Of a stretch of DNA of 34,113 bases, positions 1,551-24,173 are shown piece by piece. The first letter of the stretch is position 1. Every line of letters begins with the position of its first letter. The translations under genes and the position numbers were made by a program. The DNA is from a virus (taxonomy: Duplodnaviria > Heunggongvirae > Uroviricota > Caudoviricetes), in the IMG/VR virus record IMGVR_UViG_2695420576_000005, positions 1 through 34,113 of that record; one strand, given 5' to 3'. Under the pieces are notes generated by a model. It ran no database searches. It was not told where the DNA came from and saw only the letters and a program-made list of their open reading frames with translations.

Positions 1551-2594
1551 TTATTTAGACGCAAGCGCCGCCTCAATTGCAGATAATCTTTGTCTTAATT
1601 CTGCGTTTTCTTCTTCCAGTGCTGTTATTCTGTCGTCTGACTCTCTGGCTACCTGAACAAGCAAGCCAGTAACACCAGAATAATCTACTGTGTAATAACG
1701 TTCACCTTCTTCACCTTCCGATCCGCTCGCACCGTCCTGATATTTCATTGCGGAACCTACAACTTCTGGGATTGCTTCCAGAGCTTCCTGTGCAATGACA
1801 CCAGCATAGGGCATACCGTTTTCTTTAAGCGTGTATGTATAGCCGTTCATTTTACGGATGCGGTCGGTTGCATTATCGATCACCTGAATGTTGTCTTTCA
1901 GATCCCGGTCGGAATGCTGGTTAAATGCGGTGGCATGACATGCACCATTAACGCTTAACATATAGGTGTTATCGGTATTTTTCTGCGCATAGAACATATA
2001 AGCGCCACCATAGCGAACACCGACTTCATAAACAACAGGACGGCTGGAGTTGCCCCACAATTGAGCAGTAACACCAGCATAAGCGGTTCCCTGTGTGTTT
2101 AATGTCATGGTTGACCCATGATTGGCATATTTGATCTGTAATGTGTCGGTGTAATCAAATTTAATAAGCGCGTTACTTCCACGCTTGCTGTATGACATAA
2201 GGCAGTTACCCATTTTGAGGTATCCGCTGTCACCGGGAAAAATCATCGTACCGCCATAAAGGTTGGTAAAGTCCCAGCAAATGTTTGTCCCGTTATCGTT
2301 CAGGTTAAGGCGCGCCATTGCGTTACCTGGACTGTCTATCCATTTTTTGAGGTATAGTTCGCAATACGCATCCTCAACACCTGCCGTCCTGTGAGTTGAG
2401 CGGAGTTTTCTCCCAAATATAGCTCCGCTAGTTGGCAATACCTGCTGATACCATGAAGCAGACCAGTCACCAACGATTTCATCTTTGCTGTCTACATATA
2501 ATTTTGTTGCGTAGCTTCCTTGATCGTTTTTTAATTTGCTAACGTCGGATTTTAGCGTTTTGATGTCATCAGGAATTACTGTCGATGTAGCCAT
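1551..2594 (-). CDS. tail fibre/tailspike-like protein with C-terminal intramolecular chaperone (peptidase S74-like) domain
   Basis: 347-aa ORF. C-terminal ~110 aa (SDRDLKDNIQVIDNATDRIRKMNGYTYTLKENG...YAGVIAQEALEAIPEVV...ITALEEENAELRQRLSAIEAAL) matches, by recall, the self-cleaving chaperone domain of endosialidase/T5 L-shaped-fibre type proteins. Confidence 0.65.
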   Translation of the reverse strand: MATSTVIPDDIKTLKSDVSKLKNDQGSYATKLYVDSKDEIVGDWSASWYQQVLPTSGAIFGRKLRSTHRTAGVEDAYCELYLKKWIDSPGNAMARLNLNDNGTNICWDFTNLYGGTMIFPGDSGYLKMGNCLMSYSKRGSNALIKFDYTDTLQIKYANHGSTMTLNTQGTAYAGVTAQLWGNSSRPVVYEVGVRYGGAYMFYAQKNTDNTYMLSVNGACHATAFNQHSDRDLKDNIQVIDNATDRIRKMNGYTYTLKENGMPYAGVIAQEALEAIPEVVGSAMKYQDGASGSEGEEGERYYTVDYSGVTGLLVQVARESDDRITALEEENAELRQRLSAIEAALASK

Positions 2595-2603: not shown

Positions 2604-2885
2604 TCACATCCAGCCACGAAGTTGATGCTCAACAGCAACCACGTATTCATCGAATAATGACGATATTTGCGAATCATTAATGATGCGCACGTTTACAAAA
2701 TATCCGTCTTCCTTAACACATACCGGTTCGCCATCTTCAGTCAGTTCTCCGGTTTCTTTGTACACGTTACCTATCACGTCGATAAGAATATCATCCTGCA
2801 TCGACTCGTCATCATAATAGCCAATACTCTCCATAAAGGCCGAAAAGTCGGCCCTGTCTTCAAATTTGAGTGTTAAATCTTTCAT
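2604..2885 (-). CDS. acidic 93-aa protein of unknown function, translationally coupled to stf
   Basis: Track ORF 2604..2885; its ATG (2883-2885) overlaps the stf stop (TAATG). No recognisable family; sits where Tfa would be in lambda. Confidence 0.5.
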   Translation of the reverse strand: MKDLTLKFEDRADFSAFMESIGYYDDESMQDDILIDVIGNVYKETGELTEDGEPVCVKEDGYFVNVRIINDSQISSLFDEYVVAVEHQLRGWM

Positions 2886-5284
2886 TAGATTGACTCCCCC
2901 ATTTGTGCCTCAGTTAATTCTTTATGCCAAATGCGTAAATTTTTCACATGACCGAACAGGTGTCTGTTGCCACTGGATGATTGTCCACCGATATTAATAT
3001 TACCGGCAGTATAACGTTGCAATGTATGCAGAGACGGGGAGCTGCCACCTAAAATTCCATCAACAACAACCTGCAACTGTTTATCTTCTGTAAACTTAAA
3101 GCCAGTAACAAATTTCCTTTTCTCTCTATTCCCATATGCTTTATATTCTGTTTTTGTTCCTTTGCCATTGGTGATAATTAGCCTTTTACCACGAGTGGTA
3201 AAACCAAAATACATATAACTTTCATCAGAAACTTCAGTCGTCGCCCCTGTAATTGAGATATTAAGCAAACGCGCAGAGCCTTCTAAATTAGGCATTTCAG
3301 AATCCCAATTAACATTAACTTCCATGAGAACACTAACTGGTGGAGTTGCCCAATTGAAAGGTATAGGTATGATTACCTGGTCACTTGCTCTCGTGGCACC
3401 GACCTCTGTTGTGATGATAAAAGATGACGCGTTTAGTCCCTTTTCGAATTGAGGGGTTGTTAACATTAATTTATCGCCAGACTTGATTGATCGTTGATGT
3501 GCTCCAAACTCAAAACGCCCATACATATTTTTTGCTTCTGGTGATTTGTAGGTAAACTCAACACGAATCCATCCATTAGACTCTCTGAATATGTTATAAG
3601 TTGCCGCCTCACCTCCAGAATAACTCAACATATCGCCAGTCTCGCAATCAATATATGCGCCAGCGGTCAGTGTGTTACTTGAGCCATCGTCGTTAACATA
3701 TGATATTCTTGGACGCAACGTGATAATACCATCCCCACTTACTTTTTTAACTCTGCAGGATAAAGTAACTGATTCATTTGCCGAAACTGAAATAACCCTG
3801 GTATATCCAGTAGAAATTAATGTCGCCCTTTCAGTTGTGGATGTTTCTTTAACGCCAAACAAACCATAACTGAAACCATACTCATCAACTCCCGTGGTAA
3901 TAGTTAAGTTAGCAGTGTCATAGTTCCACGATACTGGTGTATTCGTATAAGAAAAAGTATTCGTTCTCTGACCTTCAATGAGCAGACCATCTTTTTCAAA
4001 ACGTGGTTCATTTATCGCTGATTCAGCAAAACACCCAGACTTATCTATATACGTTGCAGTTGACGCCCTGGTAAATGAAACAACCTTTTCAGACGGCAAT
4101 GCAATAACATCGTCACCAACTGTGATGCTCTTATATCCAGGAGCAAACCCGGTAATCATATCCAGTGAATCGTTAAACGGTATCCACACCTCAGGTAACG
4201 GCTGTAAGACATATTTATACGGCTCCGCAGCCTGGCTTGCGTACTCTCTGGCTGCATCTTCGCTTGCTTTAGCTGCCGTCTGGCTTGCTGCCGATGCTTT
4301 CGCTGAGTTCGCAGCCGCTGTTTCGCTCGCCTTTGCGTTGGTTTCACTGGTTTTTGCTGCTTTTTGACTGTTAGCTGATGCAGTGGCAGAAGCAGCCGCC
4401 GCACTTGCAGAACCAGCTGCAGCACTCTCGCTTTCAGCTGCTGCAGCCTGACTACTTTTCGCCGCAGTTTCACTGGCTTTGGCATTCGTTTCGCTGGTCT
4501 TCGCTGCTGTCTGGCTGGACTTTGCGTTAGTTTCACTCGTCTTCGCAGCTTTCTGGCTGTTAGCCGCAGCAGTTGCTGATCCGGCTGCTGAAGTCGCAGA
4601 ACCGGCCGCCGCACTCTCGCTGTCAGCTGCTGCATCCTGACTGCTTTTCGCCGCAGTTTCACTGGCTTTGGCATTCGTTTCGCTGGTTTTCGCTGCCGTC
4701 TGGCTGGACTTCGCGTTGGTTTCGCTCGTCTTTGCGGCTGTCTCACTGTTTTTCGCGTTGGTTTCTGATTTTTTGGCTGCAGTCGCGGAGTTTGCCGATG
4801 CAGTCTGTGAGGCCGCTGCCGCCTGTGCGCTGTTAGCTGCGTTCGTTTCTGAGGTTTTCGCCGCGTTCTTCGATGATGCCGCTGCTGTTTCGGATTTCTT
4901 TGCCGCCGCTGCGCTCTGAGAGGCGGCTTCAGCGTTGCGTGCCGCTTCTTCCACCATTTCCTCAAAACGACGCAATGCCTCCGGCATGACATCATCTTCC
5001 GTCATGGCACCGAGAAAATCATTCAGCGTCCCCGGCTTAGAATCTTCATACACGGTGATGGTCCCGGCATGTGAAGGCGGAAAACCTTCAACCAGCAGGA
5101 TAACGCTGTACTGGCCATACTCAACATCCATGCTGTAACGCCCGGCTTCATCCGGATTTTCAGAGGCCACCGTGTTCACCAGTACCGTGGTGCTGTTACG
5201 CTTTGCCTTCAGTTGAATAGTGCAGTTCTGTATTGGTTTTCCCGCACCATCTTTCAGCACACCTGAGATTTTTACTGCTGCCAT
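2885..5284 (-). CDS. stf: side tail fibre protein Stf (lambda-like N-terminus, Ala/Ser/Thr repeat shaft, divergent C-terminal domain)
   Basis: Track ORF 2885..5290 (801 aa). MAAVKISGVLKDGAGKPIQNCTIQLKA... is near-identical to the lambda Stf N-terminus; lambda-equivalent ATG at 5282-5284 with GGAG RBS. The C-terminal ~450 aa are unrelated to lambda Stf. Confidence 0.85.
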   Translation of the reverse strand: MAAVKISGVLKDGAGKPIQNCTIQLKAKRNSTTVLVNTVASENPDEAGRYSMDVEYGQYSVILLVEGFPPSHAGTITVYEDSKPGTLNDFLGAMTEDDVMPEALRRFEEMVEEAARNAEAASQSAAAAKKSETAAASSKNAAKTSETNAANSAQAAAASQTASANSATAAKKSETNAKNSETAAKTSETNAKSSQTAAKTSETNAKASETAAKSSQDAAADSESAAAGSATSAAGSATAAANSQKAAKTSETNAKSSQTAAKTSETNAKASETAAKSSQAAAAESESAAAGSASAAAASATASANSQKAAKTSETNAKASETAAANSAKASAASQTAAKASEDAAREYASQAAEPYKYVLQPLPEVWIPFNDSLDMITGFAPGYKSITVGDDVIALPSEKVVSFTRASTATYIDKSGCFAESAINEPRFEKDGLLIEGQRTNTFSYTNTPVSWNYDTANLTITTGVDEYGFSYGLFGVKETSTTERATLISTGYTRVISVSANESVTLSCRVKKVSGDGIITLRPRISYVNDDGSSNTLTAGAYIDCETGDMLSYSGGEAATYNIFRESNGWIRVEFTYKSPEAKNMYGRFEFGAHQRSIKSGDKLMLTTPQFEKGLNASSFIITTEVGATRASDQVIIPIPFNWATPPVSVLMEVNVNWDSEMPNLEGSARLLNISITGATTEVSDESYMYFGFTTRGKRLIITNGKGTKTEYKAYGNREKRKFVTGFKFTEDKQLQVVVDGILGGSSPSLHTLQRYTAGNINIGGQSSSGNRHLFGHVKNLRIWHKELTEAQMGESI
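4380..4760. repeat. 189-bp (63-codon) tandem direct repeat inside stf, two near-identical copies with degenerate flanking copies
   Basis: ttttcgccgcagtttcactggctttggcattcgtttcgctgg occurs at 4456 and again at 4645 (period 189 bp); the protein shows repeated AKTSETNAKSSQTAAKTSETNAKASETAAKSSQ blocks. Confidence 0.75.
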
Positions 5285-6015: not shown

Positions 6016-9000
6016 TCAGCTGATACTGATGCCTGCAGTGGCTTTCTTCATCACAACAACCAGCAAATCGCTGATACTTGCTGTGGGATACCAACCATTT
6101 ACCCACCATGCTGATACAGAAAACTCCAGTGTCATTACACCACTGCCTGCAGGCATATCAATAACACCCGTGTAAATCAGAGTATTATCCAGAGCCGTTC
6201 GGTTATAAATTTCAGCCCCGTTTTTCTTCACTATCAGGCGGCATGACGAATAAGTATCGCTATTCTCCCGCTCATGTCTGGCACCGCAGAAAGCCCACCG
6301 CTGGAATAACAATTTGCCGGTCAAACGACTGATCGTCATAAACCCTGACGGTAATAGTCCCTGATGGCCACCGCTCCGGTGCACGGGAGTCCCGGGGGAA
6401 AGCTTTGCCCACTGTTTTAACGAGATCGCCTTCAATCTGGTTCGCGGACAGTTTTCCCAGAACCCGACAGTTCTCGTTAATCGTGACATTATTGAGCGTC
6501 CCGGAGTTCGCATTCACGTTACCGCTGATATCGGCATTTTTCGCCGTCAGCCGCCCGTCCGGTGTCAGGGAAAATACCGGAGGATTGCCGCCACTGGTAA
6601 TGGTGGGAGCCGTCAGATACTTCAGGAACACTTCGTTCATGAATATCTGGTTGCCCTGCGCCACAAACATCGGCGTTTCATTCCCGTTTGCCGGGTCAAT
6701 AAACGCGATACGGTTAGCGGCAACCAGGAACTGGCTCAGTTTGCCTTCCTCCGTATCCTCCATACTAAGGCCAAGCCCCGCGACATAATGCCTGCCGTCT
6801 TCGGTCTGCTCAATTTTGACGCCCCACATGGCATTCCATTTATCGTTGGCGTCCTTCCACTCTTTCGAAAACTCCTCCAGTTTGCTGGCGTTATCCTCCG
6901 TCAGCTCGACTTTTTCCAGCAGCTCCTTGCCGAGATGGGATTCGGTTATCTGGCCTTTGAAAAAATCCAGGTAACCTTCCGCATCATCGCTCGGCTGACC
7001 AACAGCCTCCACGAATGCCGATTTGCCAACGGTGTTCACACTGCGGATATAAAAGTAATAATCATGGCCCGGTTTGATATTGATACTGGCAGCTATCCAG
7101 TACAGCGCCGTACCAAGATAGCGGGCTGTGGTCTCAACCTGCCTGATATCGGTAATCCGCTTTTCCGAGAACCAGAACTCAAACTGTACCGTCGGATCAT
7201 AAACCGCAAGATGCGGCGTGGCAGTTATCTGAAAATAGCCCGGCGTCAGCTCAATCCGCGACGGCGCTGCCGGTGCGGCAATCCGGAACGATACCGATGC
7301 CGGATCGCCCTGCTGTCCCCACGCATTTACCGCCCGGACCGTCAGCGTGTAACGCCCCAGCGCCAGTTGCCTGAAGCGGTATGTGGTTTCCGTCGTCCTG
7401 GCCGTGCTGACCAGCCGCTCACTGCCGTCATCCGCTGCCACGGTCAGGCGAAGCATAAAGCTCACCCCCTTCACCACCTTCGGCGTATCCCAGCGCGCCA
7501 GCACCTGATACTCCCCGCTGTCTGAGGTGACTTCGGCAGTCAGGTGCTGCACCGCAGGCGGCGTGACACCATTCACCGTGCCGCTCTGGTCGCCGTCAAA
7601 GTGCGCCCCGTTATCCACGATGGCCTCTTTTTCCGGCACATGCTGCACGGCGGTGATGGCATACGTGCCGTCGTCGTTCTCACGGATACTCACGCAGCGG
7701 AACAGGCGCTGGCGCAGCGTCGGCAGCTTCAGCCCCCATACGCTGTATTCAGCAACACCGTCAGGAACACGGCTCACTTTTACCTTCACGCCGTCGGTGA
7801 CGGACTGAACCTCCACGCTGACCGGATTGCCACTTCCGTCAACCAGACTTATCAGCGTGGTACCGGAGGATGGCAGCGTGATTTCACGGTCGAGCGTCAG
7901 CGTCCGGGTCTGGCTGTTCACCGCCAGCACGCGCAAGCCGATGCTGATACCCGCATAGTCATCATCACAGATTTCAATGACATCCCCCGGTACATGGCGA
8001 AGCCCTTCCGCACCCACGCTGAAGTCCACGGTCTGCGTTTCCAGCAGTTCCGTTTTAATCAGCCACAGCCCGGCGCGGTGCGCCTGCCCCCGGCTGGTAC
8101 AGCCAAAGGCATCCATCTTCGTGACGTTACGACCGTAACGGGCAATGGCCTGCGTATCTTCAACAAGCTCTGTCGCCGTCTCCCAGCCGTTGTTCGGGTC
8201 AATCCAGTTCACCTCAACGGCATTATGGCGGTCCTTCAGGGCGCTGAAGCTGTAGCGGAACGGCGCGCCATCATCCGGCATCACCACATTACTGCGGTTA
8301 TAGGTCCACACCTTATCTGATGGTCGGTCCTGCACGAACGTCAGCGTCTGCCCGTTCCATACCGGCATACAGCGCATCGCCGAGCAGAAATCACTGAGCA
8401 CATCCCACGCCTTGCGCTGTGTGGTCAGCCAGGCATTACAGGTGATGCGCGGCTCCGTGCCACCAAAGCCATCCGGCACCGACTGGTCGCAATTCTGGCC
8501 GATGACATACAGCGCCCATTTGTCCACATCCGCCGCACCGAGACGCTTCCCCATGCCGTAGCGCGGATGGGTCAGCATATCCCACAGACACCAGGCCATG
8601 TTGTTGCTGTATGCTGGCTTAAACGTTCCGTCCCAGATACCGCTGTATTGTCGCGTCTGCGGGTTATAGTTCGACGGCACCTGCAGAATGCGCCCGCGAA
8701 GATGATAATTACGACTCACCTGCTGGCTGCCGAACTGCTCCGAGGGTCCACCTGTACGCTGACCAGTGCCGTGTTCGGGTAGCACTGTTTCACATCGATG
8801 ATTTCGGTGTATGACGACCAGAGCGTTTTGTTCTGCAGCTGGTCTGTGGTGCTGTCCGGCGTCATCCTGCGCATCCGGATATTAAACGGGCGCGGCGGCA
8901 GGTTATCCACCACCACCGAGGCCAGATACTGCGAGGTGGTTTTGCCTTTAATGGTGATGTCTTTTTCCGTCACCCAGCCACCGTTACGCTGTATCTGAAC

Positions 9001-9414
9001 CAGCAGGCGGACTTCCGACGGATTCCGGTCCCCCTTTGAGGTGGTTTCCACCAGTGCCTGCACACCGAAGGTAAAGCGCAGACGGTCGATGTTTGCAGAC
9101 GTGATGGTCCGGGTAATCGGCGTGTCGTACTTCACTTCCGTACCCAGCACCGTCTCGGAGCCGGAGGATTCAAATCCCTCCGGCGGTGTCTGCTCCTGCT
9201 CACCTGCCCGGAACACCACCGTGACACCGGAGATATTGGTATTCCCCTCACTGTCCAGCACCGGCGTACTGTTCAGCAGCACACTTTTTAATCCGTCCAC
9301 CGGACCTTCAATCGGCCCTTCACTGATGGCGTCTATCACGCTCAGCATCTGGGATGATTTCAGGTTGTCCTTCGCTTCGCGCGGGGTATGCCCCTTACTG
9401 CTGCCTTTACCCAT
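6016..9414 (-). pseudogene. J: tail tip / host-specificity protein J, interrupted by two frameshifts
   Basis: Three collinear ORF pieces (8716..9414, 6272..8785, 6016..6513) each match successive parts of lambda J. The span is 3399 nt, the intact lambda J length. Frame changes at about 8744-8747 (C run) and 6290-6293 (T run). Confidence 0.85.
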
Positions 9415-9475
9415 TCCTCACGCTCCAGAAACGAACAAAACCGCCCTGAGGCGGTTTCACACAAAACATTCTGCA

Positions 9476-10123
9476 TCAACGACCAATCACCACAACCTGA
9501 CCACCATCTCCTTCATCTGCCGTGCTGATCTCCTGCGAAATCACCCGTGACCCCACGCGCATTTCACCGTACAGAACCGGCAGAACATTGCCCTGGGCAA
9601 CCATGTTATCCAGTGAGGAGAAATAGGTGTTCTGTTTGCCGTTATCCGTTGTCTGTGTACGGGGAGTTCTGGCTTTCGGTGCCAGCATCTGCGCCACACC
9701 ACCGAGCACCATACTGGCCCCCGCACCATACATTCCTGTAATTGCGGCAGCCCCCAACCAACCTGCAGGGTTCCACCATGCCACCGCAATCAGCGCCGCC
9801 CCCAGCACAGCCTGAAAAACACCGCCACTTTTGGCTCCCGCCAGACGCGGCACAATGTGGATCACGGCACCATTTGCCAGCGGTTCATTAAGACGGGCAG
9901 ATAATTCAGTTTCACCTGCATCACGCCCGGCAATACGTACCTGATACCAGCCGTCGCTCAGTTTCTGACGAAACGCCGGAAGCTGTGTGGTCAGCGCCCG
10001 GACTGCTTCGGCCCCCGTTTTCACACGCAGGTCGATGCGGCGGCCAAATCGTTGTAAATCCCCGTAAAGGCAGATTCGCGCCATGCCCGGTGACGCCAGA
10101 GGGAGTGTGTGCGTTGCTGCCAT
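9476..10123 (-). CDS. I: tail assembly protein I
   Basis: 215-aa ORF MAATHTLPLASPGMARICLYGDLQRFGRR... matching lambda gpI; overlaps the 3' end of K by ~100 nt as in lambda. Confidence 0.85.
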   Translation of the reverse strand: MAATHTLPLASPGMARICLYGDLQRFGRRIDLRVKTGAEAVRALTTQLPAFRQKLSDGWYQVRIAGRDAGETELSARLNEPLANGAVIHIVPRLAGAKSGGVFQAVLGAALIAVAWWNPAGWLGAAAITGMYGAGASMVLGGVAQMLAPKARTPRTQTTDNGKQNTYFSSLDNMVAQGNVLPVLYGEMRVGSRVISQEISTADEGDGGQVVVIGR

Positions 10124-10764
10124 TTGTCGGTATACCTCTCTCGTTTACTCAGTTGTTCAGGAATATGGTGCAGCAGCTCGCCGTCACCACAGTAAATGGC
10201 GGCATGATTCGGCACCGATGAACCAAAACAGCACAGCAGCACATCACCCGGTTGTGCTGATGACAACGGCACCTGATACAGCCCTGTGGCCTCCAGATTA
10301 TCCAGATAGAGATTCTGGCCGTTACGCCACCAGTCATCCTCACGATGAAAATCCGGCATCTCAATCCCCGCCAGATGGTAAGCGTCCCGGAACAGCGTGT
10401 AACAATCCGTCACCCCGTGCTCAAAGCGCCGCCCGGTAAGATGCGGCACACAGCGGAATTTATGAATCGCCCCCCGGCAGACCAGCCACCATGGCAAATC
10501 ACTCTGCACCTGCAGCCGCCGGTCAGCCTCACTCAGCCAGGGCAGGCCACCGGGGTGGCTGTGGACCAGCGCCACAATCTCACCCTGCATCTCTGCCCGC
10601 AGCCAGTCCTCCGGCGACATCCGGAAATAATCCTCCGGCTCACCGGAGATATTCACGCAGGGAAAATATCTTTCCCCTTCCGACGTTCTCACCACGAAGC
10701 CGCACGACTCCGCTGGCGCACATCGCCGGGCGTGCGCCAGAATCGCTGATTCTGTCTCTGTCAT
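10021..10764 (-). CDS. K: tail assembly protein K (MPN/JAB plus NlpC/P60 domains)
   Basis: 247-aa ORF MTETESAILAHARRCAPAESCGF... with HSHP and DCYTLFRDAYH motifs; lambda K is annotated from the internal Met (MSPEDW..., 199 aa). Confidence 0.85.
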   Translation of the reverse strand: MTETESAILAHARRCAPAESCGFVVRTSEGERYFPCVNISGEPEDYFRMSPEDWLRAEMQGEIVALVHSHPGGLPWLSEADRRLQVQSDLPWWLVCRGAIHKFRCVPHLTGRRFEHGVTDCYTLFRDAYHLAGIEMPDFHREDDWWRNGQNLYLDNLEATGLYQVPLSSAQPGDVLLCCFGSSVPNHAAIYCGDGELLHHIPEQLSKRERYTDKWQQRTHSLWRHRAWRESAFTGIYNDLAAASTCV

Positions 10765-10769
10765 GGGAT

Positions 10770-11468
10770 TTACTGCGAAAGTTTGTTAATGGAAAGGAAG
10801 CCGCCAAAGTTGCCGACATTATTGCGGAACTCACAGCCACTCAGGCATTTGCTGCATTTATCCTTCGTGATTTCGGATGTCGGCTGGTCATATTCATCCG
10901 CGACCGCCGGACCGTGATAACCGCACTCATCACCGCGATAGGTCCAGGTGCAGGTATTAGCAAGCATGATGCGCCCCGGAAAAACGGCACCATCCGTTTC
11001 CGTCGGCGTGGACAGTACAAAAGAGGCACTGACCGCGCTCAGTTCGCTGCACTGCTCGATGCGCCAGCGGCTGATCACCTCCTGCTCCGGATCGGCGTCG
11101 CTGTTTCCGTTGACGAAGTTCACCGCATCCAGAAAACGGGCATAAACCTTACGCCTGACCACCGTTCCGCCGACCAGACTCTGCAGGTCTTCCGCCATCC
11201 CGGTGACCATACCGTACAGGTTAGAAACCGTCAGCGTGGGGCGCGTACTGGTGCCTTTGCCATTCAGTTCAAAACCACTCCCCTGAATGGGATACGGCTG
11301 ATACTGTCGCCCCTGCCAGGTGACCGGCTCACCTTTTTCGTTCTGCTCATTACAGAAAAAATAACGTTCTCCACCGACCTCTGTCAGGTCGATTTCCCAG
11401 AGCACCACGCTGGCCGACTGCTCCGCACGGGTGCATTCATTCAGTGTTTCCTGCCGGATATCCTGCAT
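10770..11468 (-). CDS. L: tail tip protein L
   Basis: 232-aa ORF MQDIRQETLNECTRAEQSASVVLWEIDLTEVGGERYFF..., same length and sequence as lambda gpL by recall. Confidence 0.9.
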   Translation of the reverse strand: MQDIRQETLNECTRAEQSASVVLWEIDLTEVGGERYFFCNEQNEKGEPVTWQGRQYQPYPIQGSGFELNGKGTSTRPTLTVSNLYGMVTGMAEDLQSLVGGTVVRRKVYARFLDAVNFVNGNSDADPEQEVISRWRIEQCSELSAVSASFVLSTPTETDGAVFPGRIMLANTCTWTYRGDECGYHGPAVADEYDQPTSEITKDKCSKCLSGCEFRNNVGNFGGFLSINKLSQ

Positions 11469-11797
11469 CAGTTCACCACCTGTTCAAACTCTGCGCTGAA
11501 CTCAACACGCAGCATACTGACCCGCGACGACCATTTTGCGCAGGTCACCTTTATCTGCCGCCACTCATAAGGCGGCGTCCACAGAAAGGCTTTCCAGCCC
11601 CCGTGCTCTTCCAGAAACGACTCCAGCGCCGCGGCCTCCCAACGGGGAACAGAAAGCGTCACGCTGTACGTTTTCAGGTTGGCATTCAGCCCGGCAGGCG
11701 CTCGCTGGGAATAGCCATCACCAAAGCGCACCTTTCTTACAGAAGGGGCCGAAGCCACATCCATACCGGGTTTCACTTTCCAGCGGAAGGTTTTCAT
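11468..11797 (-). CDS. M: tail tip protein M
   Basis: 109-aa ORF MKTFRWKVKPGMDVASAPSVRKVRFGDGYSQRAPAGLNANLKTYSV..., lambda gpM. Confidence 0.9.
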   Translation of the reverse strand: MKTFRWKVKPGMDVASAPSVRKVRFGDGYSQRAPAGLNANLKTYSVTLSVPRWEAAALESFLEEHGGWKAFLWTPPYEWRQIKVTCAKWSSRVSMLRVEFSAEFEQVVN

Positions 11798-14363
11798 CGT
11801 CCACCTCCGGAGAACAGACCACCATCACGCATCTGAGCCCGGTCACAACATCCATTGCCGCCTTACGGGCTACGTCATAAACAGCCTTCAGCGCCTGTGG
11901 CCCTATCTGACCGTTCGTGCCGTCGTTGTTAATCACCACATGGTTATTCTGCTCAAACGTCCCGGACGCCTGCGACCGACTGTCCGCCATGCTGCCCGGT
12001 GTACCGACATAACCGCCGGTGGCATAGCCGCGCATAAGCCGGTAAAGATTCCCCACGCCAATCCGGCTGGTTGCCTCCTTCGTGAAGACAAATTCACCAC
12101 GGTGAACAATCCCCGCTGGCTCATATTTGCCGCCGGTTCCCGTAAATCCTCCGGTCGCAAAATGGAATTTCGCCGCAGATGCCTGAATGGCTGTACCGCC
12201 TGACGCTGATGCACCGCCAATGACACTCCCGACACTCCCGACGATCCCCACCATTGCCTGCTTAAGCAGAATTTCTGTCATCATGGACAGCACGGAACGG
12301 GTGAAGCTGCGCCAGTTCTGTTCACTGCCGGTCAGCATCGCCGCCATATTCTGTGCAATACCATCAAAGGTCTGCGTGGCTGCACTTTTTACCTGCGACA
12401 TACTGTCCGTGGCGCTCTCTTCCCACTCACTCCAGCCGGACTTCAGGCCTGCCATCCAGTTCCCGCGAAGCTGGTCTTCAGCCGCCCAGGTCTTTTTCTG
12501 CTCTGACATGACGTTATTCAGCGCCAGCGGATTATCGCCATACTGTTCCTTCAGGCGCTGTTCCGTGGCGTCCCGCGCTGCCTGCCGGTCAGTCAGCCCC
12601 CGGTTTCAAGTCGCCTCAATGGCTGCCCGTTTTGCCCGTTGCTGCTGTGCGAATTTATCCGCCTGCTGCGCCAGCGCGTTCAGGTGCTCCTGATACGTGA
12701 CCTTATCGCCAAGTGCAGCCAGCTGGCGTTTGTACTCCAGCGTCTCATCTTTATGCGCCAGCAGGGATTTCTCCTGTGCGGACAGCTGGCGACGTTGCGC
12801 CGCCTCCTCCAGTACCGCGAACTGACTTTCCGCCTTCCACAAATCCCGGCGCTGCTGGCTGATTTTCTCATTCGCTCCGGCATGCTTCTCCAGTGTCCGG
12901 AGTTCTGCCTGAAGCGTCAGCAGGGCAGCATGAGCACTGTCTTCCTGACGATCGCCCGCAGACACTTTCACGCCGGACTGCTTCGGCTTTTTCAGCGTCG
13001 CTTCATAGTCCTTTTTCGCCGCCGCCATCAGCGTGTTGTAATCTGCCTGCAGGATTTTTCCGTCTTTCAGTGCCTTATTCAGTTCCTCCTGGCGGGCGGT
13101 ATATTTCTCCAGCGGTGTCTGCAGGCGTTCGTAAGCCTTCTGCGCCTCTTCGGTATATTTCAGCCGTGATGCCTCAGACGAGGCCCGATCTTTTGCTGCC
13201 ATCTCACTGGCCTTTTCAAGATCTGCCTGCAACGTGGCGGCTGAAAGCCCAAGTCGCGCATTCTCTCTCTTCTCCCATGCCCCCCGGAGATTGGCAAGAA
13301 ATGCTGACGTTTTACCGCGCCGGTGGCTTCGGCTCTGATACCACTGCCATTTTTTATCCGCTTCATCAAAAGCCTTTTCAGCTTTGGCGAGCATATCTGC
13401 AGAGGAGTCCGGGCGACCAATATCCAGCACCGCATCCCACATGGATTTGAATGCCTGTGCAGTCTTGTCTGCCCAGGTCTCCAGCGTACCCATGTTATCT
13501 TTCAGTTTACGGGTCTGGTCATCAAACCCTTTCGTTGCGGCCTCGTTCGCCGCCTGCAATGCCCCGGCCCCATCGCCGGAACGCTGCAACTGAGCAACAT
13601 ACGCAATCTGTTCCGCCGTCACGTTATGGAACTGGCGCGCCATCGCCGTCAACCCAGACGTCGGGTCAGTGGTCAGCTTCCCGAAGGCTTCAGCGACCTT
13701 GTCCACCTCCACGCCGGATGCAGAGGAGAAACGCGCCACACTCTGGCTGATTGCCTCAAACTGCTCACCACCACGCACACCGGCATTCACCAGCGCCGTC
13801 AGTGACTCGCTGGTCTGGTTAAACGTCAGCCCTGCCGCCTGCCCGGATCTGGACAGGGCCAGCATACGATCTGCCGTCAGTCCCGCCTGATTACCGGAAA
13901 GGACCAGCGTTTTATTGAAATTGGACAGGGTTGAGTCACCCTGATACCAGGCATACGCCAGCGCACCGGTCGCCACCGCCAGCGAAGTGATACCAACCAT
14001 CGGCAGGGTGATCGCACCGGCAAGCCCCCTGAACATGGGGATCATCCCGCCGAAGGAGTCCTTCACCTGACCACCCTGTTGCAGCAGGATGAGCCACGGA
14101 TTCTGCCCCCCTGCAAGCTGCGTGGCCACGTCGGTGAACTGCGCAGGCAGCATACGCATGGCAGCTTTATACTGCCCGACGGAAATCCCCGCTTTCTGTG
14201 CAGCCAGCGCCTGCCGGTTCATTGACTGTTCAACGACTGCCGCTGTTTTTTTCGCATCACTTTCCGTACCGGAAAAATGACGCCTGACTCTGGCCATCTG
14301 CTCGTCAAATCTGGCCGCATCCAGACTTAAATCAACGACCAGATCGCCTACCGGTTCAGCCAT
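11794..14363 (-). pseudogene. H: tail tape-measure protein H, interrupted by an in-frame TGA and a 3'-terminal frameshift
   Basis: ORFs 12606..14363 (585 aa) and 11718..12509 (263 aa) are in one frame separated by TGA at 12606-12608. The conserved C-terminus ...QMRDGGLFSGGGR* (stop 11794-11796, overlapping the M start as ATGA) lies in a different frame. Confidence 0.85.
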
Positions 14364-14790
14364 ACCGGACTCCTCCTGCGATCCCTTCTGATACTGTCAT
14401 CAGCATTACGTCATCCTCCATCATGTCCGCCACATACGGGGAAGCGGGGATAACTTCATTCCCGTCCGGGCCAAAACGAACGCCTCCGGCAAGCCCTGCC
14501 GCTTTCTGCATCAGCACATCATCTTCAGGCTCTTCGTCAGCCTCGCGCCGGTTAAGCAGACTGAAATCCAGCGGATGCATATCCGGATCGCTGAAAAACA
14601 GGCTGAGCACGGTGTACGTCAGCCCGGAAAAGTGCATATCCAGCAGAACATCATGAAAATAATGGGTACTGTAAAAGCGGTGCCAGTCGGCATACTCCGT
14701 GGATGACATCCCGGCAAGCATGGCGCGCCAGTCGGGTCGCCCCATCTCACGCGCCAGTTTCAGGGCAAAACTCAGCTCACCGACGAACAC
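14356..14790 (-). CDS. T: T-frame segment of the G-T tail assembly chaperone fusion
   Basis: 144-aa ORF VFVGELSFALKLAREMGRPDWRAMLAGMSSTEYADW... matches the lambda gpGT C-terminal portion; begins immediately after the slippery heptamer. Confidence 0.75.
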   Translation of the reverse strand: MFVGELSFALKLAREMGRPDWRAMLAGMSSTEYADWHRFYSTHYFHDVLLDMHFSGLTYTVLSLFFSDPDMHPLDFSLLNRREADEEPEDDVLMQKAAGLAGGVRFGPDGNEVIPASPYVADMMEDDVMLMTVSEGIAGGVRYG

Positions 14791-14796
14791 TTTCCC
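14790..14796 (-). promoter_or_regulatory. programmed -1 ribosomal frameshift slippery heptamer GGGAAAG (G/GT site)
   Basis: Plus-strand ctttccc at 14790-14796 is GGGAAAG on the minus strand, followed by the T-frame ORF exactly as in lambda G-T. Confidence 0.7.
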
Positions 14797-14823
14797 GCAG
14801 AAACAGGCTCTGCAGGCCCGGCG

Positions 14824-15198
14824 TCAGACGAGGGCCTGTTCAGGGGAATTATTCACCACAAACTCAGACATTCCGGACAGACGTAACACCACGTTTTCAG
14901 CCTGAGCAATTGCCTCCGTGGGCCAGGTGGTAAGCACTTCCTGCTCAATCTGCGTAATGGCTTCATTCATGGACGGCAGCTTTGTCTTCTGCGGATGGTT
15001 ATGCCACAGAGACATCGCCACCAGAAACGCCCCGCCTCTGATAAGATCCTCTACAGACACCTGCAGGTTGCCGCTGGATTCAGCCTTTTTTTCCTGCTCT
15101 TTCAACCAGGCAAGATGCTCAATACGCTGCAGGGCTGACAGTTCAGAAAGCGTGACGGTCACGCCGTTATGTTCAAATGATTCTGTTTTCAGGAACAT
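14824..15198 (-). CDS. G: tail assembly chaperone G, truncated: 3' end out of register with the slippery site
   Basis: 124-aa ORF MFLKTESFEHNGVTVTLSELSALQRIEHLA... matches lambda gpG (140 aa) but stops at TGA 14824-14826; the conserved tail SSDAGPAEPVSAGKCSS and GGGAAAG lie in the +1 frame. Confidence 0.75.
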   Translation of the reverse strand: MFLKTESFEHNGVTVTLSELSALQRIEHLAWLKEQEKKAESSGNLQVSVEDLIRGGAFLVAMSLWHNHPQKTKLPSMNEAITQIEQEVLTTWPTEAIAQAENVVLRLSGMSEFVVNNSPEQALV

Positions 15199-15213: not shown

Positions 15214-15954
15214 TTAACTGGCGGTGACGGTGATTTCTGCAACCGCAGCAAACTCACCATTACCGGATACAACCGGAATGTTGACCTTGCCTGCAGCAAC
15301 GCCGTTCACGGTGATGGTCATACCACTGACCGACACGGTGGCTTTTGTTTTATCCGCTGACACCGCACGGAAGCTCTTGTCGGTTGCGCCTTCCGGCTGG
15401 AATGCCACGGTCAGCGTCGTGCTCTGCCCTTTCACTACGGAAGCACTGGCTGGCGTTACCGTCATGCCGGTGGCCGCTGTTACCGTGCTGCGATCTTCCC
15501 CCATCGACGGGCGTCCCACATTGGTGACCTTCACCGTGCGGGTGATCACTTCCTTCGCCGTCACCGCTTTACCGATACTGCTGACCCAGCCACGGAACAC
15601 ATCGACCGTGCCGTTCGGGAAGCGGATTTTATAGGCACGGGTATCACCTTCATTAAACCACGCCAGCAGCGCCTGCTGCCCCTGCTCTCCGGGCATCCAC
15701 GCCAGCGTGAAGCTGGTATCTCCGGCTGATTTCTGCCCCTGCCCGGTCGCAGTCCAGTCCGCATCCTCATCATCGAGATAACTGTCGTCATAGGACTCAG
15801 CGGTCAGTTCGCCGGGCGTCAGGTCTTTAACTTTTGCCAGACGCGACCAGTCAACGTCTGAAAGCGGGTTCGCATAAGGGTCACCGTTCCCCTTATAAAC
15901 CCATAGTGTGGTCCCGGCCCCTTTCACCGGCATTGTAGGATTTGGTACAGGCAT
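15214..15954 (-). CDS. V: major tail protein V
   Basis: Track ORF 15214..15984; lambda-equivalent start [22 protein letters not shown]... at ATG 15952-15954 with GAGGA RBS; 246 aa ending ...AEITVTAS. Confidence 0.9.
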
Positions 15955-15961
15955 ATCGTCC

Positions 15962-16357
15962 TCACATTTCATAGGTAATGACATACGTCAGATCGGCTGA
16001 ACTCCACAGGCCCGCATCATCGTCGCGTCGGTAGTCATAGCCACTGGCCACCATACTGGTGATCAAATCTGACAGTGCCGGAATATCGCTCATCACCGGA
16101 TAAATCCGGGACTCCATCCACGAATCCAGCTCTGAATCCGGCACCTGAGCAGGCAGGAAAACTTCAATATGCAGCTCCGCCTGCCAGGTATCGCTGTCCA
16201 GCTCTTCGCCCGTGTATTCAGCGCCGGTGAGATAAACGGCAATTGCCGGAAAATCCGCCTCATCAAAAACAGCGGGGCGACCATCAAAAAGCGTCGCCCC
16301 GGTGTCATGCTTCTCCAGTGCATCCAGTACGGCTGCACGGAGTTCAGTATGTTTCAT
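15962..16357 (-). CDS. U: tail terminator protein U
   Basis: 131-aa [46 protein letters not shown]..., lambda gpU. Confidence 0.9.
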
Positions 16358-16932
16358 CGCTTTATTACCATTCTCAGTTGATGCTGCAGCGCATAGCCCA
16401 GCTCTTTCGGAAGACGCTCACGCCGTATCCGTTCAATATTCTGTTTAAACGCCGTGGTCAGTGGCACCGCCATCGGGATTTTCACCACATCAATGGGGTA
16501 ACGGTTTTTCCCGGCCACACGCTGCATAACATGCCAGCGGCCATTTTTCAGTTGCTGAATAAACGCGCCGGGAATACGACGGTTTCCCACCACAAGCACG
16601 CTGCCGCCACCTTTCAGGGCTGAACGCTGCCCCTTTTTACGACGCCTGCGTCGGGACAGGACAATCCGCGCGTTACCCAGCTTTATTACGGGCAAATCCC
16701 CCCGGTTAACCTTGATTCTGGCCTGCGGATTTTTAACCGTGGCCCTTTTCAGCCTGGCCCTTTCCTTTACCAGTTTCCGGCGTACCTTTGTCTCACGGGC
16801 AACCTGTGACGCCGACTGCGATATCGCGGATGAAGCAACGCGGTTAATGGCCATTGCGGCGGCACCAGGCACCGCCGTTTTGCTGATACGGCTGAGGTTT
16901 TCAACGGCCTGCTCAAGACCTTTTATGGCCAT
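16354..16932 (-). CDS. Z: tail completion protein Z
   Basis: 192-aa ORF MAIKGLEQAVENLSRISKTAVPGAAAMAINRVASSAISQ..., lambda gpZ; ATGA overlap with U. Confidence 0.9.
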   Translation of the reverse strand: MAIKGLEQAVENLSRISKTAVPGAAAMAINRVASSAISQSASQVARETKVRRKLVKERARLKRATVKNPQARIKVNRGDLPVIKLGNARIVLSRRRRRKKGQRSALKGGGSVLVVGNRRIPGAFIQQLKNGRWHVMQRVAGKNRYPIDVVKIPMAVPLTTAFKQNIERIRRERLPKELGYALQHQLRMVIKR

Positions 16933-16943
16933 ACATCCCCCTT

Positions 16944-17297
16944 TCAGCGGCGACGGTTAACGGCAGGCGGTACGCCCCGTCCAAGCCAGAGATGACAGCT
17001 TCCGCCATCATCCGGCGAAACACGATCTATCCAGAAGTTTTCCTCACCGATGGTCAGCGTGTCTCCACGCCGCAGTTGCCGCACATCATCAGTCCGGACA
17101 AACAGGGACGGGCTGGAGCCTTCAACGCGCACGCCCTGTCCGGCATAGCTGATATTTTCAGGGTCATCAAAAACACCACGTATTACTGCGCCGGACTGCT
17201 CACCGGATGTCATGGTGGCTGACGTTCCCATGTACCCGCGTATCGTTTCATCGGTGCGGGCAATGGCAGCATCGAACAGGTTATCGAAATCAGCCAC
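16944..17297 (-). CDS. FII: head-tail joining protein FII
   Basis: 117-aa ORF MADFDNLFDAAIARTDETIRGYMGTSATMTSGEQSGAVIRGVFDDPENISYAGQGVRVEG..., lambda gpFII. Confidence 0.9.
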   Translation of the reverse strand: MADFDNLFDAAIARTDETIRGYMGTSATMTSGEQSGAVIRGVFDDPENISYAGQGVRVEGSSPSLFVRTDDVRQLRRGDTLTIGEENFWIDRVSPDDGGSCHLWLGRGVPPAVNRRR

Positions 17298-17308
17298 AGC
17301 GCCTCCCG

Positions 17309-17707
17309 TTATTGCATTCTGGCCAGGCCGCGCTCTGTCATTTCAGCTGCCACACCGGCAGAGACACGGAACGCCGTTCCCGGCAGCACAAATGCCACAG
17401 GTTCATCCCGCGTGGCGTGAAGTGCATCAGTATGCAGCGTCACCAGTGCCACGACCGTGACCAGTTCAGCCGTATCCTGAATCACGGTATCCGGCTGCGC
17501 TGATACCACCTCATGTTCATGCCCGGTCAGCACATTTTCCGGGCTGAGAGGGGTATCCTGACCGGCAGTGTCGCCCGTGTCATCAAGCTCCTCTTCCAGC
17601 TCTGCCACACGGAGCGCCAGTTCTTCTTTCGTCCCCGTCAGACTGACATCACGGTTCAGTTGTTCACCCAGCGAGCGGAGACGGGCAATCAGTTCATCTT
17701 TCGTCAT
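17309..17707 (-). CDS. FI: DNA packaging protein FI
   Basis: Track ORF 17309..17746; lambda-equivalent start MTKDELIARLRSLGEQLNRDVSLTGTKEELALRVAEL... at ATG 17705-17707 (132 aa). Confidence 0.85.
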   Translation of the reverse strand: MTKDELIARLRSLGEQLNRDVSLTGTKEELALRVAELEEELDDTGDTAGQDTPLSPENVLTGHEHEVVSAQPDTVIQDTAELVTVVALVTLHTDALHATRDEPVAFVLPGTAFRVSAGVAAEMTERGLARMQ

Positions 17708-17748
17708 GGACTCCTCCACAGAGAGAAAATGGCCCCGAAGGGCCACGA

Positions 17749-18774
17749 TTACGCCAGTTGTACGGACACGAACTCATCAGGGTCAGCCAGCAGCATCAGC
17801 GGTGCTGACTGAATCATGGTGAACTCACGCGCCGGATCGCCGGTGGTCACCCAGTTTTTCGGGTAACGGGCAGAGGCGTTAATGCCTTCGCGCTGTGCGT
17901 CCGCATCCTGAATACAGCCATAGGTACGCAGACCGCGTGCCTGAGTGTTCCCCAGCACCATCGTGTTGTCCGGCAGGAAGTTCTTTTTGACGCCGTTTTC
18001 CACGTACTGTCCGGAATACACGACGATGGCAACATCGCCATACATCCCCTTATAGGACACCGCTTTACCCAGGTCTTTCACCGCTGTCTCCAGCTCGGAA
18101 TTAGAGCCACGACGGGTATCCAGCTTCTCCTTGACGGCTTTGAAGGAACGGAACAGCGCCCAGCCTTTCGGATCAAACACGATGATATTCACCACACCGC
18201 TGGCGTTCAGCGCGTAGGCTTCGATATCGTCGGTCGGGTCATACGTGGACTTGTCACGCTTGCTCCACTCCGTGCCGCCGGACTGCGTGATGTTATTCGC
18301 CGCACTGCGGCCCATATCCACCTCAACCGGATCGAAGGCTTCACCGGTCATGGTGTATTTGCCCTTAAGCACGGCAGAAACGGCCTGCATCTCTTCGACC
18401 TGAGCAATGGCCAGCTCTTCGTCACGCATGTTCTGCATGATGATGCGACGGCGGCGGTAAGCCGGGTCCGCCAGATTCTGCGGATCTTCATCCGGCAGGC
18501 GACGCAGGGTCATCTGCGGATTCACCTCATGCTTCGGCTTGACATATCCCGGCGTAAATTCAGAGGTGGATCCGCCACGGGAACGGATAACCTCACCGGA
18601 AACAATCGGCGAAACGTACAGCGCCATGTTTACCAGTCCCGGAATTTGTGAGAGATAGACTTTCTCCGTGGTGAAGGGATAGCTCTCACGGAAAAAGAGA
18701 CGCAGAAACAGCGGATCAAACTTAAATTTCTGCTCATTTGCCGCCAGCAGCTGGGCGGTTGTGTACATCGACAT
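17749..18774 (-). CDS. E: major capsid protein E
   Basis: 341-aa ORF MSMYTTAQLLAANEQKFKFDPLFLRLFFRESYPFTTEKVYLSQIPGLVNMALYVSPIVSGE..., lambda gpE. Confidence 0.95.
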   Translation of the reverse strand: MSMYTTAQLLAANEQKFKFDPLFLRLFFRESYPFTTEKVYLSQIPGLVNMALYVSPIVSGEVIRSRGGSTSEFTPGYVKPKHEVNPQMTLRRLPDEDPQNLADPAYRRRRIIMQNMRDEELAIAQVEEMQAVSAVLKGKYTMTGEAFDPVEVDMGRSAANNITQSGGTEWSKRDKSTYDPTDDIEAYALNASGVVNIIVFDPKGWALFRSFKAVKEKLDTRRGSNSELETAVKDLGKAVSYKGMYGDVAIVVYSGQYVENGVKKNFLPDNTMVLGNTQARGLRTYGCIQDADAQREGINASARYPKNWVTTGDPAREFTMIQSAPLMLLADPDEFVSVQLA

Positions 18775-18830
18775 AAAAAAAATCCCGTAAAAAAAGCCGC
18801 ACAGGCGGCCTTTAGTGATGAAGGGTAAAG

Positions 18831-19163
18831 TTAAACGATGCTGATTGCCGTTCCGGCAAACGCGGTCCGTTTTTTCGTCTCGTCGCTGGCAGCCTCCGGC
18901 CAGAGCACATCCTCATAACGGAACGTGCCGGACTTGTAGAACGTCAGTGTGGTGCTGGTCTGGTCAGCAGCAACTGCAAGAATGCCAACGGCAGCACCGT
19001 CGGTGGTGCCATCCCACGCAACCAGCTTACGGGTGGAGGTGTCCAGCATCAGCGGGGTCATTGCAGGCGCTTTCGCACTCAATCCGCCGGGCGCGGTTGC
19101 GGTATGAGCCGGGTCACTGTTGCCCAGCGGCTGGTAATGGGTAAAGGTTTCTTTGCTCGTCAT
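18831..19163 (-). CDS. D: capsid decoration protein D
   Basis: Track ORF 18831..19169; lambda-equivalent start [12 protein letters not shown]... (ATG 19161-19163), 110 aa ending ...[12 protein letters not shown]. Confidence 0.9.
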
Positions 19164-19172
19164 AAACATCCC

Positions 19173-19778: not shown

Positions 19779-20472
19779 CCGGGACTGCAGTGTCTCCCGG
19801 ACGTCATCCAGAAGATGGCTGTAGGGGTTGCCATCCACCTTATGGCTGCCGCTGTAAATCAGCGTGATTTCCACACCCTGTTTCTCCAGCGCAGCACCGT
19901 AATTACTGTGAGCCATCATGACGCCGATGGAGCCTGTCCGGGCGGTCTGCGTGACCAGACGCCGGGAGGCAGCACTGGCAAGCAGCTGACCTGCACTGCA
20001 GTTCATGTCGTTGGCCAGCGCCCATACCGGTTTTATGTCACGCACACGGGCGATGATGTCAGCGCAGTCAAATGCTCCCGCCACCATTCCGCCTGGCGTG
20101 TCCATATCGAGCAGAATGCCGTCCACCATCGGATCGCTGGCAGCCTGTTGCAGACGGGCGATAATGCCGTTGTAACCGGTCATCCCCGAATACGGCTGCA
20201 GCGCCCGCGTCCGGCTGACCAGCGTGCCGGACACCGGCAGCACGGCGATGCCGTTCATGACCTGATAACTGCGGGCCTGTCGTGGTCCGTCATCATCACC
20301 GGATAACGCCAGCGTCGCGGGTGCCTCTCCGGCAGTCAGACTGTCGCCGGATACCGCATCCGTCAGGCGGCTGATCCCAAGCTGGCCTGCAAGCGCACAA
20401 AAGAAAACCCGCGCATAGGCGGGTTCAAGCATCAGCGGCTCATTAAAGGCCATACTGGCAATATGCGGGAGA

Positions 20473-20492
<20 letters not shown>
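19173..20492 (-). CDS. C: head maturation protease / scaffold C
   Basis: Track ORF 19173..20627; the lambda-equivalent start codon is GTG at 20490-20492 (VTAELRNLPHIASMAFNEPLMLEPAYARVFF...), giving 439 codons with the lambda-like ~20-nt overlap with B. Confidence 0.85.

Positions 20493-24173
<3,681 letters not shown>

Follow-up and report, generated by a model that had tools for sequence, protein, structure and literature searches.

The interruptions of the tail genes G, H and J in a lambda-type prophage of Escherichia coli would, in our judgement, very probably represent consensus errors of a single low-quality draft sequence from 2013, and not mutations carried by the bacterium. The lesions are private to one contig, odd insertions occur elsewhere on that contig, and a sister assembly is intact at the same genes; hence, the breaks are most likely sequence errors. 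The DNA studied here (the window; 34,113 nucleotides) matches part of draft contig AOQH01000090.1 (GCA_000397345.1) letter for letter, and contig coordinates are obtained by adding 21245 to those of the window.

The Prophage and Its Late Operon

The window most likely contains an ordinary, essentially complete lambda-type prophage that is integrated at icd and carries iss/bor and, at its distal end, sitABCD as cargo. Prophages of this type are common in extraintestinal pathogenic E. coli (ExPEC), and the element underlying the window is such a common ExPEC element that has been sequenced before. Its minus strand holds a lambda-type late operon with cos, the genes Nu1 to J, lom and stf. In lambda, the late genes are arranged in the order Nu1-A-W-B-C-D-E-FI-FII-Z-U-V-G-T-H-M-L-K-I-J-lom-stf, and the window resembles the bacteriophage lambda late operon in gene order, gene overlaps, cos, the slippery heptamer at the G/T junction and the Pfam families; its tail block has a DNA identity of 91-95% to sequenced lambda-like phages. 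Unlike lambda, the prophage sits at icd, carries iss/bor and sitABCD as cargo and has early and lysis genes with DLP12-like names; its G, H and J genes, moreover, are interrupted in this one draft. The following segments of the late operon are full length or match exactly:

24897-24908, minus strand: cos cohesive end GGGCGGCGACCT, exact match, upstream of Nu1
15214-24719, minus strand: Nu1, A, W, B, C, D, E, FI, FII, Z, U and V (head, packaging and proximal tail), all full length
9476-11797, minus strand: M, L, K and I, all full length

A match to the cos sequence with one mismatch allowed was found in 20 of 100 shuffled sequences, so that the assignment of cos is credible because of its position and context. 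The genes Nu1 through J are collinear with lambda-type protein families, as is characteristic of a lambda-type late region. The Pfam assignments, taken from the gene calls of the sequence collection, comprise Phage_Nu1, GpA_ATPase, gpW, Phage_portal_2, Peptidase_S49, HDPD, Phage_cap_E and Packaging_FI for packaging and head, and Minor_tail_Z, Phage_tail_U, Phage_TAC_2, Phage_tail_T, TMP_2, Tape_meas_lam_C, Phage_min_tail, Phage_tail_L, Lambda_tail_I and the GpJ domains for the tail.

The original prediction that all 16 other named late genes from Nu1 through I are full length held up: the lengths of Nu1 to V, and likewise those of T, M, L, K, I and lom, equal those annotated in the complete genome of strain YP3, and 12 of these 18 genes encode proteins identical to their YP3 counterparts. 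Only two private events fall into the Nu1-V block, a missense change in B at 21512 and a CA to GG change in V at 15500-15499. L has a private missense change at 10832, and I has a private change at 9899 and a second one at 9820 that is common to the window and the sister assembly. The genes S and R are also intact in the window. That stf is broken too was considered and rejected, since window, sister and relatives alike have it as an open frame of 799 codons; that RefSeq relatives show stf as split is an annotation matter. The broader notion that everything apart from G, H and J is intact is correct for the head and packaging genes, but fails for the wider late region, where Rz has lost its start codon and a porin gene is frameshifted.

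The Interruptions in G, H and J

When aligned with intact prophages of near-identical sequence, the window showed all five disruptive lesions that had been read from the sequence of G, H and J alone, along with an additional insertion in the I-J spacer:

14772-15198, minus strand: gene G, tail assembly chaperone (PF06894), interrupted, 124 versus 140 amino acids
14827-14834, minus strand: lesion in G, AGA replaced by CCTCGTC (net +4), new TGA at 14826-14824; contig 36072-36079
14790-14796, minus strand: programmed −1 G/T slippery heptamer GGGAAAG, intact, conserved, downstream of the new stop
14356-14790, minus strand: T reading frame, 144 codons (PF06223), identical to the relatives
11794-14363, minus strand: gene H, tape measure (PF06791 and PF09718), split into fragments of 585 and 245-263 amino acids
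12607-12610, minus strand: first lesion in H, A replaced by CTTG (net +3), TGA at 12608-12606; contig 33852-33855
11836-11837, minus strand: second lesion in H, +CT frameshift about 40 nt ahead of the H stop; contig 33081-33082
9435, minus strand: private +T in the I-J intergenic spacer, from alignment to intact prophages
6016-9414, minus strand: gene J, tail tip and host specificity, in three frame pieces of 232, 815-837 and about 93 codons
8745-8746, minus strand: first lesion in J, +CC; contig 29990-29991
6296, minus strand: second lesion in J, +G; contig 27541

The heptamer, whose role in the G/T frameshift we take to be that established for lambda, is situated near the 3' end of G, and T is open in the −1 frame, as befits a G/G-T pair. 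The break in G is not a misread programmed frameshift, since a distinct +4 change brings in a TGA 28 nt ahead of the intact heptamer; if this lesion were real, the slippery site would thus be out of reach. The first lesion in H is an in-frame gain, and hence a nonsense change without a frameshift, that stops the protein after 585 of 854 amino acids; downstream of the second lesion, the shifted frame overruns the start of M. The two lesions in J, when combined, restore the original frame across the last 93 codons.

According to the original prediction, at least three of the indels sit in short homopolymer runs. This is true of both insertions in J, which extend such runs (from 1 to 3 C and from 2 to 3 G), but not of the lesion in G and the two lesions in H, which are complex or lie in non-repeat sequence. 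As the only other run extension is the intergenic insertion at 9435 (from 1 to 2 T), homopolymer-length errors can mostly be rejected as the cause.

Intact Relatives and a Sister Assembly

The same prophage is present, at 99.8% identity, in five complete genomes from four continents (UPEC132, YP3, GN02350, Z0117EC0117 and MS20658; China, Australia, USA, Korea and Finland), and all five are annotated with intact genes (G, 140 amino acids; T, 144; H, 854; J, 1131). A sister contig, AOQO01000103.1 (GCA_000397485.1), stems from the same accession and submission batch as the window contig. These complete relatives and the sister are at least 99.8% identical to the window over 27-34 kb, with like flanks, and differ from it in having intact G, T, H and J genes and none of its insertions or complex changes. 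The sister is particularly close: it is the only other contig with the exact gpI variant of the window, and the two share three rare derived alleles (9820, 4472 and 4436). Yet its G, H, M, K, J, tail fibre and sitD genes are all full length, and its H protein has a RefSeq WP accession. When aligned to GN02350, the sister shows no gaps over 20.5 kb, a span in which the window has 18 private events and the sister 2 (P = 4 × 10⁻⁴).

The private proteins of the window have no NCBI/RefSeq protein accession. Among about 15 billion proteins, its truncated G, the N-terminal fragments of H and J, and full-length B with its one private missense change were each found on a single contig, and the Logan read-based assemblies contain none of the four. 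Likewise, a search of 5,426 complete E. coli genomes with 22 lesion-centred 41-48-mers gave no match. For the variant of A in the window, the index of the collection lists 229 blocks; the 24 longest contigs with this variant share the same neighbourhood, and G and H are intact in the one displayed. The caveat of the original prediction, that assembly error has to be excluded first, was therefore well placed: the lesions are private, and both the sister and the five complete genomes lack them.

Number, Spectrum and Distribution of the Private Changes

The changes that set the draft apart are by no means restricted to the tail genes, as the following private events illustrate:

28502-28539, plus strand: 38-bp imperfect triple stutter (TCGACATACTTGACTA, three times) inserted in the porin gene
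26173, minus strand: start codon of Rz (rzpD) changed from ATG to CTG, A to C
2012-2015, minus strand: distal tail-fibre gene, G replaced by CGCT, +3 in frame
467-475, plus strand: 9-bp imperfect tandem duplication in sitD

The porin stutter frameshifts the OmpC-like porin of the prophage (314 versus 360 amino acids) and is the same class of event as the tail lesions, although it lies outside the tail genes. In addition, sitA has a private +2 frameshift and a +3, and a private +1 is present upstream of ariR in the core chromosome; since this is the single private event in just 4.8 kb of true core chromosome that were inspected, to call the error assembly-wide is an extrapolation. In the draft, the 3' remnant of icd combines sequence of the remnant itself with that of the functional copy and bears extra spurious insertions; such a mosaic amounts to a chimeric consensus at an intragenomic repeat, which is thus seen here, but not for the five tail lesions.

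In total, 37 events within 42.5 kb are private to the draft, whereas four complete genomes have 4, 0, 3 and 1 (P about 5 × 10⁻¹⁹), which makes its load roughly 10-20 times that of its relatives; such an excess irrespective of gene or element is what an artefact would produce. There are 14 private insertions and no deletions (P = 1.2 × 10⁻⁴), seven multi-base substitutions, imperfect duplications (the 38-bp triple stutter and the 9-bp event) and no IS element among the private changes of the draft. Natural mutation would be expected to yield deletions at least as often as insertions, along with slippage and IS events; the spectrum found here departs from this. Three of the 14 insertions are slippage-like expansions of short repeats (GT, CAA, GC). 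Each of the 16 private single substitutions replaces an A or a C of the same strand (P about 3 × 10⁻⁵), with an excess of A to C; we cannot explain this strand bias by any error process that we could name.

Five of the 14 insertions fall within the 6.4 kb of G, H and J, out of 42.5 kb compared (P = 0.047, post hoc), a concentration that is only marginally above chance, and none falls in Nu1-V (P = 0.03, post hoc). The private events are also spread unevenly, which tells against an artefact: a single 19-kb stretch accounts for about 28 of the 37, the head block for 1 (P about 0.005, post hoc).

Templates and Paralogues as Candidate Sources of the Lesions

E. coli genomes typically carry lambdoid tail genes in several copies, and the tail block occupies a median of three places per genome, the head block one; GN02350, the closest complete relative, has a single tail-block copy. 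We compared nine homologous lambdoid tail blocks spanning about 6% divergence. At the sites of all five tail lesions, that in G included, and of the tandem substitutions, these nine homologues do not vary; only the changes at 9899 and 9820 match other alleles. Copying from a diverged paralogous prophage was rejected on these grounds, and simple paralogue mixing provides no explanation for the tail lesions.

A systematic search within ±300 nt revealed no template for any complex lesion, and local template switching at quasi-palindromes was rejected as well. Local templates exist only for the change at 12228, where an adjacent 9-nt repeat has been homogenised, and for 4472 and 4436, which lie in internal repeats of stf. 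By inspection, the G lesion and a change at 13181 raise local inverted-repeat symmetry.

The errors probably arose during assembly or consensus building and are probably worst where the genome holds diverged repeats; the true strain probably possesses intact G, G-T, H and J, as the sister does. The draft shares many properties with spurious frameshifts of low-quality drafts: its changes are private, unreplicated and scattered regardless of gene function, with an unnatural indel spectrum, stutter duplications, repeat mosaics and proteins devoid of a RefSeq accession. It differs in that its changes are not of the classic homopolymer-length kind and in the unexplained strand bias of the substitutions.

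Could the Lesions Be Real?

That this isolate's copy of the prophage recently became cryptic through ordinary decay of G, H and J is unlikely, yet it is the most plausible of the alternatives. The lesions are, after all, present in the deposited sequence, annotations of other E. coli prophages include frameshifted or stopped copies of H, L, K or J, and the slippage-like insertions in GT, CAA and GC repeats are of a natural kind. However, decay would have to account for five hits in three genes and some 30 further private changes while the sister branch has 2, and for a set of changes that includes insertions, imperfect stutters and many complex or tandem events, but neither deletions nor IS elements. 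Similar changes break sitA and alter sitD and chromosomal spacers. Known cryptic lambdoid prophages, among them DLP12, Rac and Qin in K-12, and laboratory lambda PaPa with its stf frameshift resemble the window in having tail or late-gene defects in an otherwise recognisable lambdoid element. They are marked by large deletions, by IS insertions or by one fixed mutation passed down in a lineage; the window has many tiny private insertions without lineage support. A genuinely cryptic prophage should have inherited lesions, and the present ones occur on one contig only and in common with no other genome. The suggestion that the prophage is simply cryptic is, hence, not borne out.

An unusual mutational process, localised or strain-wide, such as a mutator or template switching at quasi-palindromes, is an improbable source of real lesions. 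The strong strand asymmetry of the single substitutions with their A to C excess, and the inverted-repeat symmetry noted above, would suit it, but the complex lesions lack a template within 300 nt. Mismatch-repair mutators give transitions and homopolymer slips, and mutT gives A:T to C:G changes with neither insertions nor tandem changes; neither spectrum fits. Moreover, 0.33 insertions per kb, extrapolated genome-wide, correspond to about 1,700 insertions, a lethal load, so that the strain would not be viable if the changes were real.

The most elaborate scenario, in which an insertion-biased, strand-asymmetric burst in a clinical isolate killed the tail chaperone, tape measure and tip genes, left cos, terminase, portal and capsid perfect, and thereby created a producer of tail-less, DNA-filled heads or a satellite that relies on the tails of another prophage, is highly improbable. 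Still harder to credit is that real lesions form a functional pattern, heads and packaging being kept so that tail-less filled heads are released or tails are obtained from a co-resident lambdoid phage: the intact head and packaging genes, S, R and cos, a head block significantly poorer in private events than the rest, and the established independent assembly of lambda heads and tails speak for it, but everything that argues against real lesions applies equally, the contrast in insertions between head and tail is marginal (P = 0.03-0.06, post hoc), the start codon of Rz is lost, and selection is not indicated, the pattern being confined to one contig and absent in the sister. The tail-less-particle reading of the original prediction hence found no positive support, and the contig-wide scatter of changes also reaches non-tail and non-prophage DNA.

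Implications

If the breaks were real, they would define a natural lambdoid prophage with a head-only morphogenetic module, with a bearing on transduction and helper-dependence. With the breaks very probably being consensus errors, H and J, as large and often multi-copy genes, would simply be the biggest targets for scattered errors. The main value of the finding is one of caution: a pseudogene pattern in a single old draft, here one of dead tails and living heads, can mimic biology.

Breaks in the tail genes of the prophage

The minus strand of the window carries a lambda-type late region that begins at cos and continues into further fibre genes after stf.

Layout of the prophage in the window
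24897-24908, minus strand: cos, GGGCGGCGACCT
24719 down to 2885, minus strand: Nu1, A, W, B, C, D, E, FI, FII, Z, U, V, G, T, H, M, L, K, I, J, lom and stf, in this order after cos
25.4-34 kb: lysis genes S, R and Rz; iss/bor; the prophage porin; DLP12-like nin-region genes
Left edge of the window: sitD

Alignment of the window to near-identical intact copies confirmed the five lesions that the original prediction had placed in G, H and J, and delimited them exactly. All five disrupt genes, as had been claimed, but one acts as a nonsense change instead of shifting the frame; nor are most of them homopolymer slips, which had been proposed for at least three of the indels. The G lesion leads to a TGA at 14826-14824 and leaves G with 124 amino acids (140 when intact), while the first H lesion, although in frame, creates a TGA that ends H at residue 585 of 854.

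Gene-damaging changes in the window
14834-14827, minus strand: G lesion, AGA to CCTCGTC (+4)
12610-12607, minus strand: H lesion 1, A to CTTG (+3, in frame)
11837-11836, minus strand: H lesion 2, +CT
8746-8745, minus strand: J lesion 1, +CC
6296, minus strand: J lesion 2, +G
26173: start codon of the Rz spanin gene (rzpD), ATG to CTG; private to the window, ATG in all relatives
28539-28502: private 38-bp insertion in the prophage OmpC/NmpC-like porin gene

The natural programmed G/T frameshift was rejected as the cause of the G break, since the lesion is separate from the slippery heptamer GGGAAAG (14796-14790), which is conserved together with the T frame. The remaining late genes match the annotated lengths of strain YP3 exactly, and most of them encode proteins identical to those of YP3; the prediction that every head and packaging gene is intact holds. 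The Rz start is damaged as well, and so is the porin, which is cut to 314 of 360 amino acids. The porin insertion forms an imperfect triple repeat of the 16-nt unit TCGACATACTTGACTA and looks like an assembly stutter. The stf gene (window 2885-5284; 29902-32301 in L004-L007, the loci of the relatives) is a single open 799-codon frame in the window, in its sister contig described below and in all relatives; in the relatives, RefSeq nonetheless annotates it as a pseudogene plus two short genes. An internal 245-bp repeat (84% identity) lies within the stf region.

Comparison with complete genomes and with the sister draft

The window matches, base for base, a part of contig AOQH01000090.1 (55,674 bp; contig coordinate = window coordinate + 21245) of the draft assembly GCA_000397345.1. 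Exact-protein look-ups among ~15 billion proteins, including Logan assemblies from public read sets, found the truncated G, the N-terminal pieces of H and J, and a full-length portal protein with a single private missense change on this contig only. None of these four proteins has an NCBI protein accession, and 22 lesion-centred 41-48-mers were all absent from the 5,426 complete E. coli genomes searched. A RefSeq accession does exist for the H protein of the sister, and we infer that the assembly of the window either never entered RefSeq or was removed from it.

The same prophage is present at 99.8% identity in five complete genomes from China, Australia, the USA, Korea and Finland (human and dog), in all of which G (140 aa), T, H (854 aa) and J (1131 aa) are annotated as intact. 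In these relatives it is a full lambdoid prophage (int, xis, exo, bet, gam, repressor, O, P and others) that is integrated at icd, with sitABCD and an icd 3' remnant at its far end. Its early, nin and lysis part (window 25.4-34.1 kb; L004 1-10000; a further locus, L020) shares synteny with DLP12, a cryptic prophage of K-12 (emrE, ybcK, ybcN, ninE, ybcO, rusA, ylcG, quuD, porin, essD, rrrD, rzpD, bor/iss, nohD); in the present element it is linked to an entire lambda-type late operon and to an integrase specific for icd. Related prophages of other complete genomes, namely ETEC L5_E1779 (L015) and ECL27977 (L013), have annotations of a frameshift in H, K or J or of an internal stop in L, which may be real or may be long-read errors.

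Pairwise comparison of four of the complete-genome copies gave 4-14 substitutions and at most one indel over 49 kb. When a further 8.4 kb of the contig, outside the window (L008), was included, for a total of 42.5 kb, the draft had 37 private events, against 4, 0, 3 and 1 in the four complete genomes (P ~5e-19).

The exact gpI variant of the window occurs on one other contig only: AOQO01000103.1, which belongs to GCA_000397485.1 and to the same batch of accessions. Three derived alleles (9820, 4472 and 4436), absent from the complete genomes, are common to both contigs, making AOQO01000103.1 the closest known sister. This comparison is the decisive one: in the sister, G, T, H, M, K, J, the distal fibre and sitD are all full length; it aligns to GN02350 with zero gaps over 20.5 kb, and has 2 private events in this span versus 18 in the window (P=4e-4). 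A private C to G of the window and a private A to C of the sister are adjacent at 12227-12228, directly following GGC in GTCGGCAGT, and may mark a systematic sequencing-error hot spot common to both drafts.

Nature of the private events

The private events comprise 14 insertions (1, 1, 1, 1, 2, 2, 2, 2, 3, 3, 3, 4, 9 and 38 nt) versus no deletions (P=1.2e-4), together with seven multi-base substitutions such as CA to GG, GA to TC, GG to TT and AGTG to TTTT; the insertions include the imperfect triple stutter with its 16-nt unit and a 9-bp duplication, likewise imperfect. They reach beyond the tail genes and beyond the prophage: sitABCD are iron/manganese transporter genes, not phage morphogenesis genes, and one base was added upstream of ariR in the core chromosome.

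Private events in sitA, sitD and the icd 3' remnant
L008 14349-14350: sitA, +2, frameshift
L008 14502-14504: sitA, +3
Window 467-475: sitD, +9 nt
L008 16091-16283, past the left edge of the window: icd 3' remnant where the prophage ends, six events within 200 bp

In the draft, the icd 3' remnant mixes its own sequence with that of the functional icd copy 45 kb away in a mosaic that also contains spurious insertions (+GC, +C), and it has the appearance of a consensus built from mixed repeat reads. Six further private substitutions, absent from the sister, fall within 26 bp (window 1030-1055) of non-coding DNA between a tail-fibre-assembly remnant and sitD. Extrapolated genome-wide, 0.33 insertions per kb would amount to ~1,700 insertions, which, if this rate applied throughout, is incompatible with a viable isolate. 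A real recent decay of the prophage, in which the tail genes would have been broken by true mutations, is an improbable source of the five lesions. An unusual mutational process is considerably less probable still. Over the window and L008, all 16 private single substitutions lie at A or C of the late-gene sense strand, the minus strand of the window (P ~3e-5), and six of them are A to C. Local template switching was rejected as an explanation: no template was found within 300 nt of any complex lesion.

Distribution between head and tail genes

The lesions lie where the original prediction had seen broken tails beside intact heads, but this pattern exceeds chance only marginally: G, H and J (6.4 kb) hold 5 of the 14 insertions of the 42.5 kb (P=0.047, post hoc) and Nu1 to V none (P=0.03, post hoc). 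Counting all private events, the head block is depleted (1/37; P ~0.005), and event density is uneven along the contig, with ~28 events in a single 19-kb stretch that extends from V as far as the icd remnant. Copy number is a plausible, though unproven, reason: E. coli genomes have the tail block at a median of three places, compared with one for the head block, so that the tail genes run the greatest short-read consensus risk. Against this idea, only one tail block is present in the closest complete relative, and the five tail lesions match no allele of nine diverged homologues, for which reason an origin of these lesions from paralogues was also rejected. A functional head-only prophage is the least credible reading of the pattern. 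It overlaps with real decay and with an unusual mutational process, and the three are not mutually exclusive.

The best explanation, which we consider probable, is that the five lesions arose as errors in the consensus of a single low-quality draft, and that the prophage of this strain, like that of the sister, has intact tail genes.
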